A DNA stretch of 24,458 bases, taken from Leptospirales bacterium (GTDB lineage Bacteria; Spirochaetota; Leptospiria; Turneriellales; JAOUFE01). Shown here piece by piece: positions 78 through 13,771 of this stretch. Location: assembly GCA_040326155.1 (NCBI GenBank), contig JBEQLE010000065.1, forward strand, positions 1-24,458. Reading direction: 5' to 3'. The translations under genes were made by a program, and so were the position numbers. Positions within the stretch are counted from its first letter, which is position 1; each line of letters begins with the position of its first letter. The notes under the pieces were generated by a model. That model had not been told where the DNA came from and did not search any database. It saw only the letters and a program-made list of their open reading frames with translations.

Positions 78-1454
78 TTAGTAATTAATTCGAGCTCTTA
101 GATAAAAGATATCTTTTTCATCATACATTGAAATCAGTTCGTCTTTATTACCGATAAATGCCATATAGCCCGCCGTAAGTTTTAATCCATCCTGAAATTC
201 CCAGGTAAAAGAGACGGAAGGTATATAACCAGAGTCTTCGTCTACGGGTCGAATTAAGAATGCTCCGTTTACTTCGAGTTTTTCATTAAACCATTTATCT
301 TTCAACGCAACCATTAAAAAACCGCTGAAAAATTCGTTCTCAAGGTTAGAAGTGGTAATTAAAAAAGATTTTGTATATTCGATTAATACCGTACCGTAAT
401 TACCCCACAGGTTATAATCCACTCCAGTTGAAAAAGAAAAATAACCAGATTCGGCGGTTTTTTGTTCCATTATTAATGTTGTTCCTGAAACAGACTTTTG
501 AACAAATTTCTTTTTCACCAGGGCAACATGGTTTGGTGAGTATACGACCTCACCACGCGCTGCAAGCTTGCCAGTTGTAAACGCAACATCTAACCCCACT
601 TTATCGGATACATGATACAAAGGTGACGCTGTTACCGACTGTAAATTGCCTGTTAAATCGTATTTGAGTTCCGGACGAAACATAACCGAGTTGCTGACTC
701 CATGAAAATAAGAGAGGTGAACATCGACAGGACCAAAAGTTCCTCCACCTCTTAAAGCGTAAGAAAAATTCTCGGGACGATTATCTGGAAGATTTGTTAA
801 ATCGTATTGTGAAACCTGTCCTGAAACTGTAGCGGGTTGCAATCCCCAGTAACTGTCAGAATCTGGAAATGCAAAGGGATTCAAAACAGGAACAAAGATC
901 GCTTCGACCATGAAATCTCCGAATAGAACTTTGAATGCGGCTCCAAAAGTACCTCCGTACCTTTCGTCCTCTTCCTTAAAAAAAAGTTCCGAAAGATCTC
1001 TTTTATCAAGATAATTTACAACTCGAAAAGCGTCGGCAACGCCCCAGTTATAAACCATCTGCCCAACACGAAACTGAACTTTTTCCCCCATGGCCAGGTA
1101 GAGTTCATACAAAGAGATCGATCCGGAAGTTGCGGGGTCGGTTACACCCTCAAAACCGGGATAGAAAAAAGCGTCTGCTGTTGCATGAGCGAAAAAAAAC
1201 GGAGACCCTGCATGTATGGTCGTGCGATTACGCGCTTCCAGTTTGGCTACCTGCTTTAAAACAGGAGCATAAATATTTTCGTTCTCCAGATACCCATAGA
1301 CTTCCAGACGAGAGTCTGAAACTGAATCAGAAGATGATGAATCGTCGTTTAAAAACATGTCATCCATCTCCTCCTCTGACTGTTGCCCTGCAACAGGAGT
1401 AAACAGGGCTATAAAAAACAAGACGATTATGATCGGTTTTATTCGAGATAGCAT
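78..1454 (-). CDS. Putative outer-membrane beta-barrel protein (DUF1302-like)
   Basis: Signal peptide, acidic low-complexity linker, G.QxxNWGxAD-type motif (VGQMVYNWGVADAF), alternating beta-strand pattern and a C-terminal aromatic beta-signal (FYLRARINY). Last gene after the RND and LolA-like genes. Confidence 0.7.
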   Translation of the reverse strand: MLSRIKPIIIVLFFIALFTPVAGQQSEEEMDDMFLNDDSSSSDSVSDSRLEVYGYLENENIYAPVLKQVAKLEARNRTTIHAGSPFFFAHATADAFFYPGFEGVTDPATSGSISLYELYLAMGEKVQFRVGQMVYNWGVADAFRVVNYLDKRDLSELFFKEEDERYGGTFGAAFKVLFGDFMVEAIFVPVLNPFAFPDSDSYWGLQPATVSGQVSQYDLTNLPDNRPENFSYALRGGGTFGPVDVHLSYFHGVSNSVMFRPELKYDLTGNLQSVTASPLYHVSDKVGLDVAFTTGKLAARGEVVYSPNHVALVKKKFVQKSVSGTTLIMEQKTAESGYFSFSTGVDYNLWGNYGTVLIEYTKSFLITTSNLENEFFSGFLMVALKDKWFNEKLEVNGAFLIRPVDEDSGYIPSVSFTWEFQDGLKLTAGYMAFIGNKDELISMYDEKDIFYLRARINY

Positions 1455-5183: not shown

Positions 5184-5229
5184 TTAAATTCCACCCAGGT
5201 CTACTTTCTACTCTCAGTTTGACTTCATC

Positions 5230-5257
5230 ATTATAATTGTATTTATTTTTATTGCAA
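5230..5257 (-). promoter_or_regulatory. Sigma70-type promoter for the RND operon
   Basis: Minus strand: TTGCAA (5257-5252), 16 nt spacer, TATAAT (5235-5230). Confidence 0.6.
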
Positions 5258-5277: not shown

Positions 5278-5329
5278 TACTTTTTAAAATCTATTTGAAA
5301 TTACGAACCCTTGGTAAAGTAAGGTAAAG

Positions 5330-6391
5330 ATGGTTTCTTTCAGTTATTTCGGGGCTGCTTTTGCTCTCCTTTTAGGTATCGCCCAGCTTATACGACCATG
5401 GCATAAACACAATATAATATTGTCTGCGCTCTTATTTTGTCTGTCTTATATCAACTGTTATTTAGTGTTTGTTGTGGACAGATCAGTATTAGACTACCCC
5501 CATATGCTACACACCATTTTACCATTCATTTACACCATCGGACCTTTGGCATATTTATACCTTTCCATTGTTACCTCTGTAAATTTTACGTGGAAAAAAA
5601 AATACGTTTTCCACTTTCTTCCCCTTCTGGTTTCCATTATAGTGGGTTTGAAATATTGGATTTTAACCGGTGAAGAAAAAATTGAAATTTTTATGCTGAT
5701 CTACAAAGGAGAAGGCGCCGAGTATACCGCTTATTCTCTGGGGCCCGGTCTTCTACTGATCTTCGCGTACCTTGTTTTAATCTCATATGAAAATAATCCG
5801 TTTATTAATATGAAAAATCACCAGAGCTGGATGATTGGCGGGCTTTTACTGTTTTGGGTTATGGCTTCAGCAATCAGCACGGTGAGTGTTTTTGCGGGTA
5901 ATACAAAATACCTTCCATTCACGGGGGTCTTTACGACAATTTCCATTATTTATCTGTTTTTGCTTTCTCAGCGATATCCTGACCTGCTTTATAATTTCGG
6001 ACGAGCTTTGCGGAAAAAGAAATACGATCGCTCTTTATTACATAGTGTCAATACAGGAAGCCTCAGCGAAAATCTCCACATACTGATGACAGATGAGAAG
6101 ATCTACCGAAACGACACTTTGAACTTGAAAGAAACGGCCTCCATGCTTAGAGTAAGCTCTCACCAGCTATCCCAACTCTTAAACGAAATTGAGAATAAAA
6201 ACTTTAACGGTTTTATAAATGCGTATCGAATTAAAGAAGCAAAAGAACTTATTCAGGAAGATCCTTCCAAACGGATTATTACAGTCGCGTATGATGTTGG
6301 TTTTAACTCTGTCTCGGCTTTTAATACGGCTTTTCATAAATACACGAACCTTACACCCACCCAGTATAAAAAGAACTCTGCAAAAGCGTAA
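5330..6391 (+). CDS. AraC-family transcriptional regulator with N-terminal multi-pass membrane domain
   Basis: About 7 hydrophobic segments, then an AraC HTH domain (SHQLSQLLN...NFNGFINAYRIKEAK...IITVAYDVGFNSVSAFNTAFHKYTNLTPTQY). Confidence 0.93.
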   Translation: MVSFSYFGAAFALLLGIAQLIRPWHKHNIILSALLFCLSYINCYLVFVVDRSVLDYPHMLHTILPFIYTIGPLAYLYLSIVTSVNFTWKKKYVFHFLPLLVSIIVGLKYWILTGEEKIEIFMLIYKGEGAEYTAYSLGPGLLLIFAYLVLISYENNPFINMKNHQSWMIGGLLLFWVMASAISTVSVFAGNTKYLPFTGVFTTISIIYLFLLSQRYPDLLYNFGRALRKKKYDRSLLHSVNTGSLSENLHILMTDEKIYRNDTLNLKETASMLRVSSHQLSQLLNEIENKNFNGFINAYRIKEAKELIQEDPSKRIITVAYDVGFNSVSAFNTAFHKYTNLTPTQYKKNSAKA

Positions 6392-6443
6392 GCACTCTAA
6401 AAAACAGTTGTAAATATCGATGCGAACTGCCATTCCAGTAAAC

Positions 6444-7658
6444 ATGATTCGAAATTACTTCTTCATAATAATTATCATTTTCGCTTTCCATCTAGGACTT
6501 TCAGGATGTGGTTATAAAGGGCCGAAGCCGCATATTAAAGAGTTTGTTGAAAATCATTGGAAACATCCTTTGCCTGCCATGGGTAAAAAACCGGAAGGTC
6601 TTAATCCTGAAAGTATCTCGATGGACCCTTCCAGCTGTGCGGGATGCCACTCTGAGCAATTTGAGGCATGGCAAACCAGTAAACATTCCCATGCGCTCGG
6701 TCCCGGTCTAATGGGCCAGCTTGTCGATCTGGATCCGGAAAAACCGGGTAATTTCGACGCTTGTCTGAAATGCCACACTCCACTTGCCGAACAACAGGAG
6801 ACGATTATTGCCGCTGTAAAAAACTCAACCGATACCGATTCGGTAAAGGGACTACACTGCCTCGGTTGCCATGTCCGCGACTGGAAATGGTATGGTCCCA
6901 CTTCACGAAACTCCACCGCTCCAGAACCGGGCGATAAACCCGACCCGGAACTTGCACAAAAACGTATCCATGGAGGTTTTACCGAAAATCCCGCTTTCTC
7001 TGATTCGTATTTTTGCGCCTCCTGCCACCAGTTTCCCGAAAACTGGCGAAAACTCAACGGGAAGCTTATAGAGAATACATATAATGAATGGAAAGATTCG
7101 TCGTATCCTGAAAAAGGAATTCATTGTCAGAGTTGCCACATGCCTGAGCGAGCCCACCTCTGGAAAGGAATTCATGACCCGGAAATGACAAAAAGTGGTG
7201 TCGACATTAAACTCGATTATTCTACTTCGTTAGATACAATTTCCGCTACGCTCAAGATAACAAATTCCGGGACCGGCCACTATTTTCCCACCTACGTAGT
7301 ACCGATGGTTTTTGTATACGCCGCTCAGTTCGATGAAAATAACAATGAAATTGAAAATACCCGTTTTGAATATATAATCGGACGCAAAACAGACATGAGC
7401 ATACAAAACGAACTTTTCGACACCCGCATTGCGCCCGGGAAAACATCTACAATCGAATACGATAAAAAACGAGAGTCCAACGCCCGCTTTTTTACTGTTT
7501 GGATTGTTGTAGAACCAGACTACTTTTACGCTCAATTATACAGAAACTGGCTGACTCGCGATAAGTCCGCTCGCTCGAAAAAACTGATGCAAGAAGCTCT
7601 TGAGCTGACTCAAAAAAATATTTTTGAAATATACAGGGAGAAAAGAATTATAAAGTAA
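6444..7658 (+). CDS. Pentaheme c-type cytochrome, predicted lipoprotein
   Basis: Five CxxCH motifs (CAGCH, CLKCH, CLGCH, CASCH, CQSCH), lipobox LSGC after a hydrophobic stretch, and GHYFPT in the C-terminal beta domain. Start is 6444 or 6420. Confidence 0.9.
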   Translation: MIRNYFFIIIIIFAFHLGLSGCGYKGPKPHIKEFVENHWKHPLPAMGKKPEGLNPESISMDPSSCAGCHSEQFEAWQTSKHSHALGPGLMGQLVDLDPEKPGNFDACLKCHTPLAEQQETIIAAVKNSTDTDSVKGLHCLGCHVRDWKWYGPTSRNSTAPEPGDKPDPELAQKRIHGGFTENPAFSDSYFCASCHQFPENWRKLNGKLIENTYNEWKDSSYPEKGIHCQSCHMPERAHLWKGIHDPEMTKSGVDIKLDYSTSLDTISATLKITNSGTGHYFPTYVVPMVFVYAAQFDENNNEIENTRFEYIIGRKTDMSIQNELFDTRIAPGKTSTIEYDKKRESNARFFTVWIVVEPDYFYAQLYRNWLTRDKSARSKKLMQEALELTQKNIFEIYREKRIIK

Positions 7659-7750
7659 TACTTTTTCAATAACCAGATTAACTGATTTTTTGTTTTTTTT
7701 GCGCATTTTATCTTTAACCTTCATGTGGATGATGCTACCTTAAAAAATAT

Positions 7751-7774
7751 CGCAATTATCCCCTTACGGACATA
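7751..7774 (+). repeat. Terminal inverted repeat (left)
   Basis: CGCAATTATCCCCTTACGGACATA. Confidence 0.85.
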
Positions 7775-7805
7775 ATTAATGGGTATAATTTAAAGTGAAT
7801 AATTT

Positions 7806-8372
7806 TTAATCAAGCATATCGAGTACAGGGTTTAATGGAGTGCTGATATGCGCTTGAATCATTAACTCTAATGCCTGTGGTGTACTTATCCGGTAAGCTA
7901 AAGAATAAACTATTGATTTGTACAATTCAGTTAAATTGCTACCACCGTTAGTTGGTTTTGAATTATCAAACGCCATGCCAAAAGAGATATTTAGTGCGAC
8001 TTTTTCATTTATTTTTGTAAAAAGCAATCTATATTCATCAGAAATGTCGTCAGGAACATTGTCCTTTATTTGTATTGGTTTTATTTTTGCTAACCAGTAT
8101 CCAGTGTAAGCTGCAATCTTTACCGAATTAACTTTTTTTATCCCATGGAATTTTTTTAATCTGGTTATATCTGCAAAATAATTAATAACAACATCTAACA
8201 ATGTATGTTCATTTATGCAGAAATATTGCAATAGGTCTTTTGATAAAGAATTGCAGTAGGCACTTAATGATGATTCCGACTTATCTAACAACAATTCAAA
8301 CCTTTCTAGTATATATTCCTCGCCATATTCATCAACAAGATAGTTGTAGTCTTTATAGCCGGTAGAATCCAT
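7806..8372 (-). CDS. Hypothetical 188-aa passenger protein, predicted mostly helical
   Basis: Long open frame in an AT-rich segment, 22 nt downstream of the 66-aa gene. Contains a motif-like core YFADITRLKKFHGIKKVNSVKIAAYTGYWLAKIKP. Confidence 0.8.
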   Translation of the reverse strand: MDSTGYKDYNYLVDEYGEEYILERFELLLDKSESSLSAYCNSLSKDLLQYFCINEHTLLDVVINYFADITRLKKFHGIKKVNSVKIAAYTGYWLAKIKPIQIKDNVPDDISDEYRLLFTKINEKVALNISFGMAFDNSKPTNGGSNLTELYKSIVYSLAYRISTPQALELMIQAHISTPLNPVLDMLD

Positions 8373-8394
8373 TTAAAATTAGAGTATCGTATGT

Positions 8395-8595
8395 TTATTG
8401 ATTAGCTATTGATAACAGGTCAGGGTTGGTTGATAATCCGTCTATACTTTTGGCAACTTTGTCTGCATTGAATGCATTAGACGTATTTGGTAATACTTCT
8501 TTTTTAATTTTACCGCTCTTAATTAGTCCAATTAGTCTCTTGCCGACCCGTGTTGCTCTTTTGCTAGGTACATAATATTGACTCTTATTTTCCAC
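8395..8595 (-). CDS. Small 66-aa protein with basic N-terminal half (possible antitoxin or regulator)
   Basis: GTG start preceded by a strong GGAGG Shine-Dalgarno (ctGGAGGattgatagGTG), with a promoter just upstream. Confidence 0.7.
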   Translation of the reverse strand: MENKSQYYVPSKRATRVGKRLIGLIKSGKIKKEVLPNTSNAFNADKVAKSIDGLSTNPDLLSIANQ

Positions 8596-8638
8596 CTATC
8601 AATCCTCCAGAAATCGTGTCAAAATTTCATATTAAAAC

Positions 8639-8680
8639 ATATTGTCGATGACAATATAGTAAGTAGTACTATATTGTCAA
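8639..8680 (-). promoter_or_regulatory. Sigma70 promoter overlapped by nested palindromic operator
   Basis: TTGACA (8680-8675), 16 nt, TATATT (8658-8653). Perfect 13-bp inverted repeat TGACAATATAGTA-agtag-TACTATATTGTCA (8649-8679) and a second, ATATTGTC-gat-GACAATAT (8639-8657). Confidence 0.7.
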
Positions 8681-8710
8681 TATATAGTGAGACATAAACT
8701 TTACACTTTT

Positions 8711-8733
8711 AAAAAATATTCGCAATATATCCC
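8711..8733 (+). repeat. Degenerate internal copy of the left TIR and its flank
   Basis: AAAAAATATTCGCAATATATCCC compared with AAAAAATATCGCAATTATCCC at 7742-7762. Confidence 0.45.
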
Positions 8734-8790
8734 ATCAGTATTGGTTTAGATTAAAAATATACTTAAATTTTTGTCCCCCGGTTATATATT

Positions 8791-9024
8791 TTAACAAACA
8801 ACCCTCCCCAACAGATCACTAAATATATCCTTATTATGACGATTGTTAAACCTCCAGCAAAACTCGTCAACATTTCTCTGAAGCCGCTTTTCCGATACAT
8901 GGTGAAAACTACCCATAATCCCGCATTTCAAAAGAGACAAAAAGTTCTCAACATTATTAACGTGAATCCCGTCTCTTGCATATTCTCCTAAAGAGTGATT
9001 AACCTTCAAGTGAAATTGCTCCAA
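8791..9024 (-). pseudogene. IS1595-family (ISXO2-like) transposase, C-terminal fragment
   Basis: VNHS...EY...GIHVNNVENFLSLLK..IMGSFHHVSEK.LQR.VDEFCWRFNNR is the characteristic C-terminus. The N-terminal zinc ribbon and first catalytic residues are absent, and there is an in-frame stop shortly upstream. Confidence 0.9.
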
Positions 9025-9212
9025 GTCATTTACGATATTTCTTATGGCACCATACCGCTATGTTCAGATCTGCCAAAAACAATGTTACTGGCGATTACAT
9101 GGCAGTGTTTATACTTTTTTATGTAATATATTCCTTTACCTTGGCTGGTTTTTTTCTTGGTGGTTTGGCATTTGTATTTCTTGGAATATCTTTGCCACTT
9201 AGTACGTTTTTA

Positions 9213-9236
9213 TATGTCCGTAAGGGGATGATTGCG
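9213..9236 (-). repeat. Terminal inverted repeat (right)
   Basis: Reverse complement is CGCAATCATCCCCTTACGGACATA. It lies 10 nt past the stop of the 386-aa gene. Confidence 0.85.
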
Positions 9237-9246
9237 AAATTGTTTA

Positions 9247-10407
9247 TTAACGAGTAAAGCTCTGCATAATGTAATCGATGTAATAACCCGGGGGGACGTC
9301 AGGCGGTACCGTAAAGGCAAAAACCCAACTATATTCGGCGTCTTCTTTGGTAACAGGCACACATAAAAAATATATAATATCAACATTTCTGGTAAACAGA
9401 TTGTAAAATCCATAAATTCTTAAATAACCGGTGAAGCCGTTTTTCCATTCTTCATATGCGACAACACTTGTTTCTTTTAATTCCCCCCATAGATAATCTT
9501 TTTGAATTTTCAGGTAGTTGTCAAGATCGGAATAGAATTTTCCCCATGTTGTATGGGCAATACCGACCCATCCCGCATTTGCGCCGATCGGCAGACTAAA
9601 TGTATATTGTATTTTAATCGGGGCAATCTGATGCACCAGATTTTGCTGTAGAGAAAGGGTCTTTGCAAAACTCGACGGCTCCAGTTTCCAACCGTATGGG
9701 GATTTCCACATCACGGAGTCCACCTGGAGAGTATTTTCGGCAATTTGAACGGCGTGAACCAAGTCAGGACCGCGCAAATTTATATCATTGGAGTTTTTTA
9801 TACCCCATGCCATCCAGTAATAAAAAAAAGTAACCAGCATTATCCAGGCAATCGATAAATAGAACCGGTGATATCTTTTGCTTTTGCTTAATAAATCAGC
9901 AAATATAAAAATAAGAATAAGTAACACAAAGAATCCAAAAATGGGAGCAGAGAACGGGAAAAAATATAAAGGGGGAGTGCAAACGATTAACGAAATATAA
10001 AAAATTCGTCTTGTAATAACGCTAATCTGCCGGTTTATTGTTCTAAATAAATAGTACGCCGCAAAGGCCCCAAAAAATGCATAAAGGCTGACAGGCAGAA
10101 TATTATGTATTGAAAATTTTAGAATACCCGCAAGTAACGATACAAAAAAAATCAAAAATATTGAAACCCATTTGGCGACATAGAGTGGGTCCAGCCATGA
10201 AATTACTCTGCCGGCTTTTTTAAGGCTGATCAGTGTCGAATCGTTCAAAGACAAAATAACTTTTCTACCCGGCTTGACTTTGAATTGGGTAATATCTTCG
10301 CGATGAATTGTTATTTTCTTTTCCGGTATTTCGAGACGGTTATTATATAATCGGGCGGGAAAATATTCGTGATCTACTTCGGCAATAATATCTGATTTTC
10401 GAGCCAC
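9247..10407 (-). CDS. Hypothetical multi-pass membrane protein
   Basis: GTG start 6 nt after the JAB gene stop. Soluble N-terminal ~70 aa, about 5-6 TM segments and a soluble C-terminal domain. Confidence 0.75.
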   Translation of the reverse strand: MARKSDIIAEVDHEYFPARLYNNRLEIPEKKITIHREDITQFKVKPGRKVILSLNDSTLISLKKAGRVISWLDPLYVAKWVSIFLIFFVSLLAGILKFSIHNILPVSLYAFFGAFAAYYLFRTINRQISVITRRIFYISLIVCTPPLYFFPFSAPIFGFFVLLILIFIFADLLSKSKRYHRFYLSIAWIMLVTFFYYWMAWGIKNSNDINLRGPDLVHAVQIAENTLQVDSVMWKSPYGWKLEPSSFAKTLSLQQNLVHQIAPIKIQYTFSLPIGANAGWVGIAHTTWGKFYSDLDNYLKIQKDYLWGELKETSVVAYEEWKNGFTGYLRIYGFYNLFTRNVDIIYFLCVPVTKEDAEYSWVFAFTVPPDVPPGYYIDYIMQSFTR

Positions 10408-12223: not shown

Positions 12224-13771
12224 TTAAAGGTCGAAACCTTCTTGCAGGGAGTCTCGATTTTTCTTCCAGAACCTGTTTATTATTTTTCCCATTTTGGCGC
12301 GCCCGAATAAGCCGAAACCCAATACCAGGGCGATAATAATGACAAGGTAGCCTATTAACCATGGAATGTCAATTAATGCCTTCCAGAGGTTTGTGACGAG
12401 TTCGATGGAAATATCCATACTAAACAAGCTGACTACGCCTTCGGTTACAACATAAAAGAATCCGAGTGAAAAAGTTACTGTCATTAAGAGGAAATGAGCT
12501 ATACGTCGAAATGTTATCCAGGTTTTGACTTTGTCTAACAGTGACGTTACACCACCGAGAGGGGATGAAATGGCAATCCATTGGTTTTGTATATTACCTA
12601 CATTGATTGTCTCTTTGTCTTTTACAACTTCAAGTTTTGTTGGCAGGTTTGTGGGACCGTACCCTTCTGGACACTGGACTATTTTTTCAAAGGTTGTGTA
12701 GTGAACTTTGGGAGTATCTGTTCCCGCTTTTTCGGATAATCGGGCAATGTCGCGCGGTAAATACCGGTAATATACATTGAGACCCGAACGAGGGTTGTAA
12801 CATTTGTCATTAATATTGCGCAAAGCTTTTATATCTTCTCTGGCCGATTTGGAAAATTGTACTCCCGCTGCTTCGGCTCTATTCATCATCCAGTCGAGAC
12901 TTACATGTGACATTCCCGACTTGGGGTAGCCCCCGCCAACGTTGGAGTGAACCCCGGAAAACCAGACTTGTTCTATGACCTGGTCTTTATTTCTGTTGTT
13001 CTGTTCTTTCCAGATATTGGGGCGTAACGTCTTTCGCTCATCGTCAATGGAAATGGCGTGGTAGGCTTTTTTAACATTTTGTCCTAAAATGTTATTGGTA
13101 AATTCAAATTTATATACATATTTGTTAATTGCATGTTTTATAATTTCAACGGGAATGCCCACAGCTGAAGTAGAGTCCCAGACTCCGATAAACTCAATGG
13201 CTGGAATTCCATCGTCATCTTTAGTTCGGTGTACTGCAAATTTTTCGCGAAAATTTTCCAGTTTCGGGGTCCGCATGATCATATGACCCAGGGAACCTAT
13301 GAGGGTATGGTATTTTCTTCTGTAAACTTTGTACGCATCTTTAGTCGCCTCACCCAGGTTCAGGTTACTTTTTCTGATGTCGACGATACCGCATGTTGCA
13401 ATTAAACCAGCCAAGGCCCTGACTGTATAAGCGCCGCGAGAAAATCCGAAAAAAAACAGTTTATCTCCGGGTTTATATACTCTTGCAATCGCCTCATATA
13501 GCTGGCAAATATTTTTACTTACCCCGTAGCCAAACATTCCTCCCAGTATTTTCAAAGGTTTCCAGTCATCATTACCGACTCCGTCGTCATAAAAGGCGAC
13601 TTGTTTTCTGAGTCCCTTTGCTTCTTTATCATAAAAACCGCCGACATTCACACTTTCAAAGATTTTAAAAACATTTGTTTTATTTGATTTTGCTGCGCTA
13701 TTGCCTGTTCCGTCCGAGCAAATTATAATATTTTTTCCGATTACTTTCTTTTTTTTTGTCTGGGTTGCCAT
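12224..13771 (-). CDS. DUF2235 (Tle1-like) alpha/beta hydrolase with C-terminal membrane helices
   Basis: KNIIICSDGTGN, TNVFK, FGFSRGAYT (nucleophile Ser), GVWD, HAISIDDER and WFSGVHSNVGGGY motifs. Two C-terminal hydrophobic helices. Confidence 0.9.
   Translation of the reverse strand: MATQTKKKKVIGKNIIICSDGTGNSAAKSNKTNVFKIFESVNVGGFYDKEAKGLRKQVAFYDDGVGNDDWKPLKILGGMFGYGVSKNICQLYEAIARVYKPGDKLFFFGFSRGAYTVRALAGLIATCGIVDIRKSNLNLGEATKDAYKVYRRKYHTLIGSLGHMIMRTPKLENFREKFAVHRTKDDDGIPAIEFIGVWDSTSAVGIPVEIIKHAINKYVYKFEFTNNILGQNVKKAYHAISIDDERKTLRPNIWKEQNNRNKDQVIEQVWFSGVHSNVGGGYPKSGMSHVSLDWMMNRAEAAGVQFSKSAREDIKALRNINDKCYNPRSGLNVYYRYLPRDIARLSEKAGTDTPKVHYTTFEKIVQCPEGYGPTNLPTKLEVVKDKETINVGNIQNQWIAISSPLGGVTSLLDKVKTWITFRRIAHFLLMTVTFSLGFFYVVTEGVVSLFSMDISIELVTNLWKALIDIPWLIGYLVIIIALVLGFGLFGRAKMGKIINRFWKKNRDSLQEGFDL

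Follow-up and report, generated by a model that had tools for sequence, protein, structure and literature searches.

What is the role of two intact, adjacent genes that sit on a mobile element whose own transposase has decayed? The question is raised by a stretch of 24,458 nucleotides (nt) from a Leptospirales bacterium (assembly GCA_040326155.1, contig JBEQLE010000065.1, positions 1 to 24,458), referred to below as the window, in which a gene for a 66-residue protein and a gene for a 188-residue protein lie one behind the other on the minus strand. A preliminary description, made from the sequence and its open reading frames (ORFs), had taken them for a passenger operon with the layout of a type II toxin–antitoxin system or for an anti-phage module. 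The reading that we prefer, as a possibility falling somewhat short of the probable, is that of a toxin–antitoxin-like two-part module, with a Doc/Fic-like effector and a neutraliser docking on it, which is autorepressed in this copy and is the passenger of a dead insertion sequence (IS) of the IS1595 family.

In the mechanism we propose, the pair would be a self-contained, horizontally moving two-protein module, here carried by a decayed IS1595 'transporter IS' of 1506 bp (7741-9246). Its two products would function jointly, with the small protein docking through its N-terminal helix onto the large all-alpha protein, and the latter would most likely have a Doc/Fic-like helical fold with a non-canonical loop, F75-H76-x-I78-x-x-x-N82-x-x-K85, which spans the last part of one helix, the linker behind it and the beginning of the following helix. 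Since this conserved loop sits where Fic proteins carry their signature, the large protein can be read as a phosphate- or nucleotide-handling effector that would modify a cellular target. The small protein would neutralise or regulate it, in the manner of phd-doc and class I FicTA pairs. Transcription would start from one sigma-70-type promoter and, in the window copy, would be held in check by palindrome-mediated autorepression. From the sequences and models set out below we infer physical binding of the two products, a Doc/Fic relationship, enzymatic activity, toxicity, autoregulation and a role in addiction or defence.

The gene pair and the insertion sequence around it

The small gene (8395..8595, minus strand, 66 aa, GTG start) is preceded at a distance of 8 nt by a GGAGG ribosome-binding site, read from the sequence (8604..8608, on the complement), and is followed, after a spacer of 22 nt (8373..8394), by the large gene (7806..8372, minus strand, 188 aa, ATG start), which encodes a candidate effector or toxin, predicted to be all-alpha, of an unannotated family. 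ORFs and sequence confirm this arrangement as it had first been described. They also confirm that the segment is more AT-rich than its flanks: the cassette has a GC content of 32.5% against 39.2% in the rest of the window, and the lowest-GC stretch of 790 nt in the 24 kb starts at 7611 (29.9%; mean 39.0, standard deviation 3.1).

Ahead of the pair, a sigma-70-like promoter on the minus strand (8653..8680; TTGACA at 8680-8675, a 16-nt spacer, and TATATT ending at 8653), assigned by consensus scan only, matches 11 of the 12 consensus positions and is the best promoter-like site of the region. Since the scan returned 14 sites in the region where 10.0 were expected, the promoter site alone is not significant. 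It is overlain by a perfect palindrome (8649..8679), a candidate operator with two arms of 13 nt (8649-8661 and 8667-8679) around a 5-nt centre, and when the 195-nt intergenic region was shuffled 2000 times, arms of that length came up only once. The promoter amid a palindrome that the preliminary description had reported is thus present, and a strong promoter within a non-random palindrome is counted here in favour of the toxin–antitoxin reading. With its one promoter overlapped in this way, the operon is probably autorepressed through the palindrome in the window copy.

The pair had been placed on a mobile element, and the terminal inverted repeats that we found to enclose it, which are new over that first reading, put it inside an IS-like unit. 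The repeats are 34 nt long and complementary at 31 of 34 positions; one (IR-A, 7741..7774) marks the transposase-distal end and the other (IR-C, 9213..9246) the transposase-proximal end, where it abuts the stop codon of a 386-aa gene. Their 25-nt core pattern occurs twice, and no more than twice, in the window; 100 shuffles gave an expectation of 0.00. Between the repeats, beside the pair, stands the C-terminal third of an IS1595-family transposase (8791..9024, minus strand, 77 aa), which matches Pfam PF12762 (DDE_Tnp_IS1595) at 4.3e-13, above the cut-off and over profile positions 97-153 of 153, and NCBIfam NF033547 at 1.7e-15, below the cut-off of that model. Upstream of the remnant, stop codons close all three frames and two thirds of the gene are lost, so that the adjacent transposase has indeed decayed, as first noted. 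Because the repeat arms enclose the transposase stump together with both genes, in the unit of 1506 bp, the pair is a true passenger. The unit as a whole separates two genes that face it with their 3′ ends, one for a multihaem cytochrome and the 386-aa one, which encodes a membrane protein.

Transposition of IS1595 elements duplicates 8 bp of target. No such 8-bp duplication was found around the window unit, the outer 8 nt being different on the two sides (tgctacct at 7733-7740, ttaacgag at 9247-9254). By alignment, an incomplete further copy of the terminal repeat, the third in the unit, can tentatively be placed at ~8711..8737, between the transposase stump and the promoter of the pair (15 nt, 80% complementary to 9231-9245). 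It runs in the same direction as IR-A (7741-7765), so that direct repeats of ~24 nt flank the cassette; either the cassette may have been inserted into an IS end, or a second end may have been acquired by the IS. The IS remnant had no blastn match among plasmids. The IS1595 family is known to include passenger-carrying copies, called 'transporter IS' (Siguier, Gagnevin and Chandler 2009, as cited in the part of PMC3129680 drawn on here). Insofar as that part describes them, the window element shares with these an IS1595-type transposase and genes unrelated to transposition within one pair of inverted repeats, and differs from them in having lost two thirds of the transposase, in lacking the 8-bp duplication and in carrying an extra partial end copy.

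A two-part family with a conserved polar site

Five loci with DNA context were available for asking whether the two genes belong together: the window, Leptospira sarikeiensis (L001), an Anaerofustis metagenome-assembled genome (MAG; L002) and a Eubacteriales MAG (L003), these three from a scan of genome contigs, and an Azospirillum plasmid (L004) added by tblastn. In all five, which span Spirochaetota, Bacillota and Alphaproteobacteria, the large gene is immediately preceded by a homologous small ORF of 64-77 aa, at a distance of -4 to 22 nt (-4 to 19 nt in the four loci other than the window). No homologue lacking a small partner upstream was seen among these loci. In addition, of the 150 family proteins listed, four (P0069, P0121, P0128 and P0146) have the small module fused to the N-terminus of the large one. 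The small-then-large architecture is thereby borne out, being kept in every locus with DNA context and in four natural fusions.

The five small proteins align around a segment h-x-x-L-x-S-G-x-I-x-K-x-x-L-P-N, and a hidden Markov model (HMM) of seven other small modules, from which the window copy was excluded, recovered the 66-aa ORF of the window at E=2e-8, the next of the 140 window ORFs following at 0.17. A word-indexed search with the small protein found only the protein itself, its relatives having come from ORFs beside large-protein homologues. For the large protein the same kind of search gave five relatives at 34-60% identity, and an exhaustive profile search returned, at E<=1e-3, the representatives of 931 clusters drawn at 50% identity (424 of them at <=1e-10), mostly 170-200 aa in length. 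Given the relatives of the large protein and the HMM match of the small gene, both genes are real and not chance ORFs. The GC content of the cassette is below that of its flanks in all five loci, by 7-13 GC points, as expected of acquired DNA, and the gene neighbours differ from locus to locus. At the three genome loci the flanking genes are ordinary housekeeping genes, with no defence genes and no prophage in the flanks.

The family is otherwise blank in the collections consulted. Neither window protein has a match in Pfam, NCBIfam or PADLOC (the latter at E<=1), and the small protein has a weak PHROGs match to a family of unknown function (E 0.0015). The 107 sequences that served for per-member scans and structure alignment, scanned singly, returned no consistent Pfam family, no PADLOC match (E<=1e-3) and no PHROGs match, and no PDB sequence matched the family profile by hmmsearch at E<=10. 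A search of the ESM Atlas gave best scores of 0.75-0.78, below the level of a lead, and the Atlas model had a predicted local distance difference test (pLDDT) of 0.38, its structure rows being uninformative. No published description of the large-protein family was found in the literature, which was searched at limited depth. The protein does not map to a known non-toxic family, as the preliminary description had considered it might, and the family matches no known family at all. Pfam on 15 longer members gave no informative fused domain besides a GlmS-type fragment in P0144 (269 aa), which begins with ~100 residues from the N-terminus of a GlmS-type glutamine amidotransferase (GATase_6, 2.4e-08); an insertion in or beside glmS has probably led to a chimeric gene call here. 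Another long member, P0083 (253 aa), has a C-terminal extension of ~80 residues with no Pfam match.

Within the 107 large proteins, one short region stands out by its conservation, with D68 (107/107), R71 (102/107), K73 (101/107), F75 (102/107) and H76 (94/107), followed by I78 (89/107), N82 (88/107) and K85 (106/107); W93, N122, E123, Y156, R161 and E169 are further conserved positions. The conserved residues from D68 to K85 are mostly polar and are clustered on one helix-linker-helix, in which, in the predicted structure, the first helix (55-76) ends with H76, the linker comprises residues 77-82 and the second helix (83-97) has K85 in its first turn. Two members, P0015 (370 aa) and P0053 (363 aa), contain the large domain twice, as a tandem duplication. 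Each retains F75-H76 in its first copy; in the second copies these residues are replaced by SY or IY and further motif residues are lost, N122-E123 and Y156-R161 being kept. Retention in the first copy and loss in the second, in two cases out of two, is expected of a functional rather than a structural site, and to judge from their sequences each of these proteins would be a pseudo-dimer with one intact site.

Likeness to Doc and Fic proteins

The AlphaFold2 model of the 188-aa protein, built from the 107-sequence alignment, is all-alpha, with a pLDDT of 93.4 and a predicted template modelling (TM) score of 0.88. When it was compared with the PDB by Foldseek, the first match was Doc of phage P1 (3kh2_C; E 0.72, probability 0.92, TM score 0.44 by query and 0.61 by target, root mean square deviation (rmsd) 4.8 Å). 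Doc took ranks 1, 2 and 4 (E 0.72-1.2, probability 0.77-0.92, TM score 0.39-0.44 by query and 0.55-0.61 by target, rmsd ~5 Å), and the 43 matches listed include five of Fic or Doc proteins, namely four Doc chains (3kh2_C, 3kh2_A, 3dd7_C and 3k33_A) and C. elegans Fic-1. A second model, that of the fusion protein P0128 (pLDDT 82.6), was built from an alignment of the 4 fusions and 57 large proteins; Fic-1 ranked first for it, and five Fic chains were among the 45 matches listed. Nothing usable came from the viral structures of BFVD (best E 0.66, TM score <=0.53).

The fusion model also bears on how the two proteins may interact. Its residues 1-20, which correspond to the first helix of the small protein, reach a pLDDT of 96/95 with only 4 sequences covering them, and the next 20 residues, the conserved G-x-I-x-K-x-x-L-P-N stretch, reach 65/44. 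This lends indirect support to docking of the first helix of the small protein on the large domain, as predicted in the model, and the natural fusions point, likewise indirectly, to binding between the two parts.

Doc of phage P1 is a Fic-fold kinase of EF-Tu, and phd-doc is a type II toxin–antitoxin system. The window pair resembles phd-doc in having a small gene followed by a larger gene for an all-alpha protein in one operon (222 nt for phd and 381 nt for doc in P1), in that Doc chains are the best Foldseek matches of the window model, and in that the small partner is predicted to dock on the large protein through one of its helices. It is the C-terminus of Phd, however, that docks on Doc (according to the part of PMC10440598 drawn on here), whereas the docking part would be N-terminal in the small protein of the window. 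The window protein is also longer (188 aa, against 126 for Doc), the invariant H-x-F-x-D-x-N-K-R of Doc is replaced in it by FHxIxxxNxxK, and neither a sequence relationship with Doc nor an occurrence in the phage collection was found, as detailed below.

Fic proteins offer a second comparison. Their signature, HPFx(D/E)GNGRxxR, sits on the linker between helices alpha4 and alpha5 and on the start of alpha5, and their inhibitory helix is on a separate small protein in class I FicTA systems (VbhTA, Ye_FicTA) and in cis in classes II and III (both from the part of PMC8401265 drawn on here). H76, the hydrophobic residue at +2 (I78) and the asparagine at +6 (N82) would be in register with this signature, and a regulatory helix that is either separate or fused at the N-terminus matches the split and fused forms of the family described here. 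Class I FicTA systems differ from the pair in that the window family is without the signature, in that the small proteins do not conserve the Fic inhibitory motif, [S/T]xxxE[G/N], and in that no beta-hairpin flap is evident in the model of the window protein. Taken together, the pair would seem to resemble phd-doc, class I FicTA and the transporter IS most, without carrying the defining sequence features of any of them.

Weighing the toxin–antitoxin reading against its alternatives

A number of results weigh against the reading preferred here, and they concern both the fold and the function. Neither of the two models had a PDB match by Foldseek at E<=1e-3, the best having the E of 0.72 and query TM score of 0.44 given above, and the Fic matches of the P0128 model have a poor TM score of ~0.15. 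P1 doc homologues were collected, 27 of them were aligned, and profiles were compared by hhalign, with a probability of 1.8% against the single Doc sequence and of 0.35% against the 27-sequence alignment (E 0.17, 20 columns). Pfam Fic/DOC (PF02661), which most of the listed Doc homologues carry, is matched by none of the 107 members at E<=0.01 and not by the window protein at E<=1. The signature HPFx(D/E)GNGRxxR (HxFxDxNKR in Doc) is absent, its acidic residue, G-N-G nest and arginines all missing, and the register proposed above comes from sequence and secondary structure, without superposition. Since the PF02661 match, the signature and profile homology all fail, membership in the Fic/Doc family is not established. 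The preliminary description had hinted at a degenerate Fic fold while stating that the canonical signature was lacking. The latter statement is correct, with FHxIxxxNxxK in its place; the hint survives as a lead only, in that Doc is the first Foldseek rank. The helix on which it was based, KIAAYTGYWLAKIKPI, had been taken for the one preceding the signature, but in the sole stretch aligned by hhalign (window protein K85-D104, Doc K73-D93) it is paired with the Doc helix that follows the signature.

As to function, defence models (PADLOC-DB 2.0) are matched by 0/107 members, the family is nearly absent from plasmids (1 of 72,556 records, tblastn with 5 queries) and was found in none of 50,697 phage records (tblastn with 2 queries). 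The natural fusions fit an obligate two-subunit protein as well as they fit a toxin–antitoxin pair. Two features on which the preliminary description had leaned turn out to be peculiar to the window copy: the palindrome is real there, and nothing comparable was found upstream of the small gene in the four other loci; similarly, the basic character ascribed to the N-terminus of the small protein holds for the window copy, with its isoelectric point of 10.07, and not for the four other small proteins, at 4.5-7.8. Finally, an enzyme gene follows the pair in two relatives, which would fit a system of regulator plus effector.

The last point leads to the alternative that survives best. In L002 a third gene overlaps the stop codon of the large gene and matches Pfam RelA_SpoT at 2.5e-17, its closest solved relatives being small alarmone synthetases (5e-7); in L003 the third gene begins 7 nt downstream and encodes a calcineurin-like phosphoesterase (Pfam Metallophos, 1e-14), which is weakly similar to SbcD/Mre11 and has a PADLOC match at 3.7e-27, to the model 'Effector, Endonuclease'. 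In L002 a 40-nt direct repeat (37/40; 5197-5236 and 7442-7481) brackets a 2.2-kb insert between host genes, made up of an upstream 107-aa ORF, the pair and the RelA/SpoT gene, and a weaker direct repeat (21/26; 5285-5310 and 7545-7570) surrounds the three genes of L003. Because the direct repeats enclose the pair and the third gene together, the third enzymes travel with the pair, and the repeats suggest a cassette-like site-specific insertion without a recombinase on board. Just outside the L002 insert, a plus-strand gene (7512-8960) encodes a 482-aa protein with a repetitive N-terminal region and a C-terminal ion-channel domain (Ion_trans_2, 1.9e-12). In coupling the pair to a small RelA/SpoT-type synthetase within a repeat-flanked unit, L002 recalls the toxSAS toxins (FaRel2/ATfaRel2, PanA-neutralised toxins), as far as the partial account of these systems drawn on here goes; the window differs from them in having no such synthetase gene, and the pair in having no Pfam match, Panacea/DUF4065 included.

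It could then be that the pair forms one half of a modular system, as its sensor, adaptor or antitoxin, that the killer is the variable third gene, and that the window copy is an effector-less remnant or has its partner elsewhere. The synthetase and the nuclease-like metallophosphoesterase right behind the pair, within shared repeats, speak for this. However, three-gene loci number only two, and the three other loci, distributed over three phyla, have two genes only, both of full length and with the conserved residues intact. Nor is there space for a third gene in the window, where 31 nt separate the stop of the large gene (7806) from the repeat (7774). The conserved polar site, lost in the second copies of the tandem proteins, also suggests that the large protein itself acts. 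We therefore regard this alternative as unlikely.

A second alternative is that the two genes encode a non-toxic accessory protein of two subunits, with a housekeeping, regulatory or transposition-related role, and that the palindrome binds the transposase or another regulator. An argument for it is that the operator half-site, ATATTGTCAATATAT (8671-8685), resembles the IS end, ATATTCGCAATATAT (8716-8730). The fusions, moreover, show that the two parts can stay permanently joined, no family member matches defence (PADLOC) or phage (PHROGs) families, and the genome loci are flanked by the housekeeping genes mentioned above. A role in transposition is nevertheless unlikely, since no transposase stands beside the pair in the four other loci, and a patchy distribution, low GC content and ever-different neighbourhood are typical of selfish or conflict genes; as a whole, this alternative is quite unlikely. 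Highly improbable, lastly, is that the large protein is a divergent HEPN-type RNase and the small protein its inhibitor: R71 (102/107) and H76 (94/107) do conform to the HEPN motif Rx4-6H as Rx4H, the protein is all-alpha, tandem forms exist as in two-HEPN enzymes, and HEPN toxin chains (7ae8, 7ae6 and 7ae9) are among the Foldseek matches listed, but these chains have a probability of 0.06-0.08, a TM score of ~0.2 and an rmsd of 12-13 Å, none of the 107 members matches any Pfam HEPN family, and the model puts the motif at the C-terminal end of a long helix (55-76) and not at a helix start.

For completeness, some other contents of the window may be recorded. The multihaem c-type cytochrome gene next to the IS-like element (6420-7658, plus strand; several CxxCH motifs, Cytochrome_C554 at 3.8e-08), from whose stop codon the element is 83 nt distant, is preceded by a gene for a membrane-anchored AraC-type regulator (5330-6391, plus strand). 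The 386-aa protein on the other side (9247-10407, minus strand) and a 458-aa protein (78-1454, minus strand) have no Pfam match at E<=1e-5. A gene for a 515-aa protein (12224-13771, minus strand) with the catalytic domain of a Tle1-like phospholipase of type VI secretion systems (PF09994, 1.1e-71) stands alone between UPF0114 and plsX-like genes. Scanning of the window with Rfam and tRNA models found nothing.

If the pair is indeed a toxin–antitoxin or defence module, it would add about a thousand 50%-identity clusters that are blank in Pfam, NCBIfam, PADLOC, PHROGs and the PDB sequences, and the window copy would be a clean example of an IS that carries conflict genes after its own transposase has been lost. 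If, furthermore, the link to the Doc/Fic fold is true, that fold would tolerate a wholesale change of its catalytic loop, with a new modification chemistry or target. More ambitious, and in our view doubtful, is the proposal that the family is a new and widespread branch of Fic/Doc-fold effectors with an FHxIxxxNxxK loop in place of the classical signature, that the small proteins are a new antitoxin family occurring in split and fused form, and that the two make up the core of a modular conflict system which recruits additional killing enzymes, such as an alarmone synthetase or a nuclease, and moves in short repeat-flanked cassettes, one of which an IS1595 element would have captured here; should such a branch exist, its chemistry or its target would probably be new. 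With its split, fused and tandem forms and its optional third enzymes, the family offers a natural series for studying how the module is regulated.

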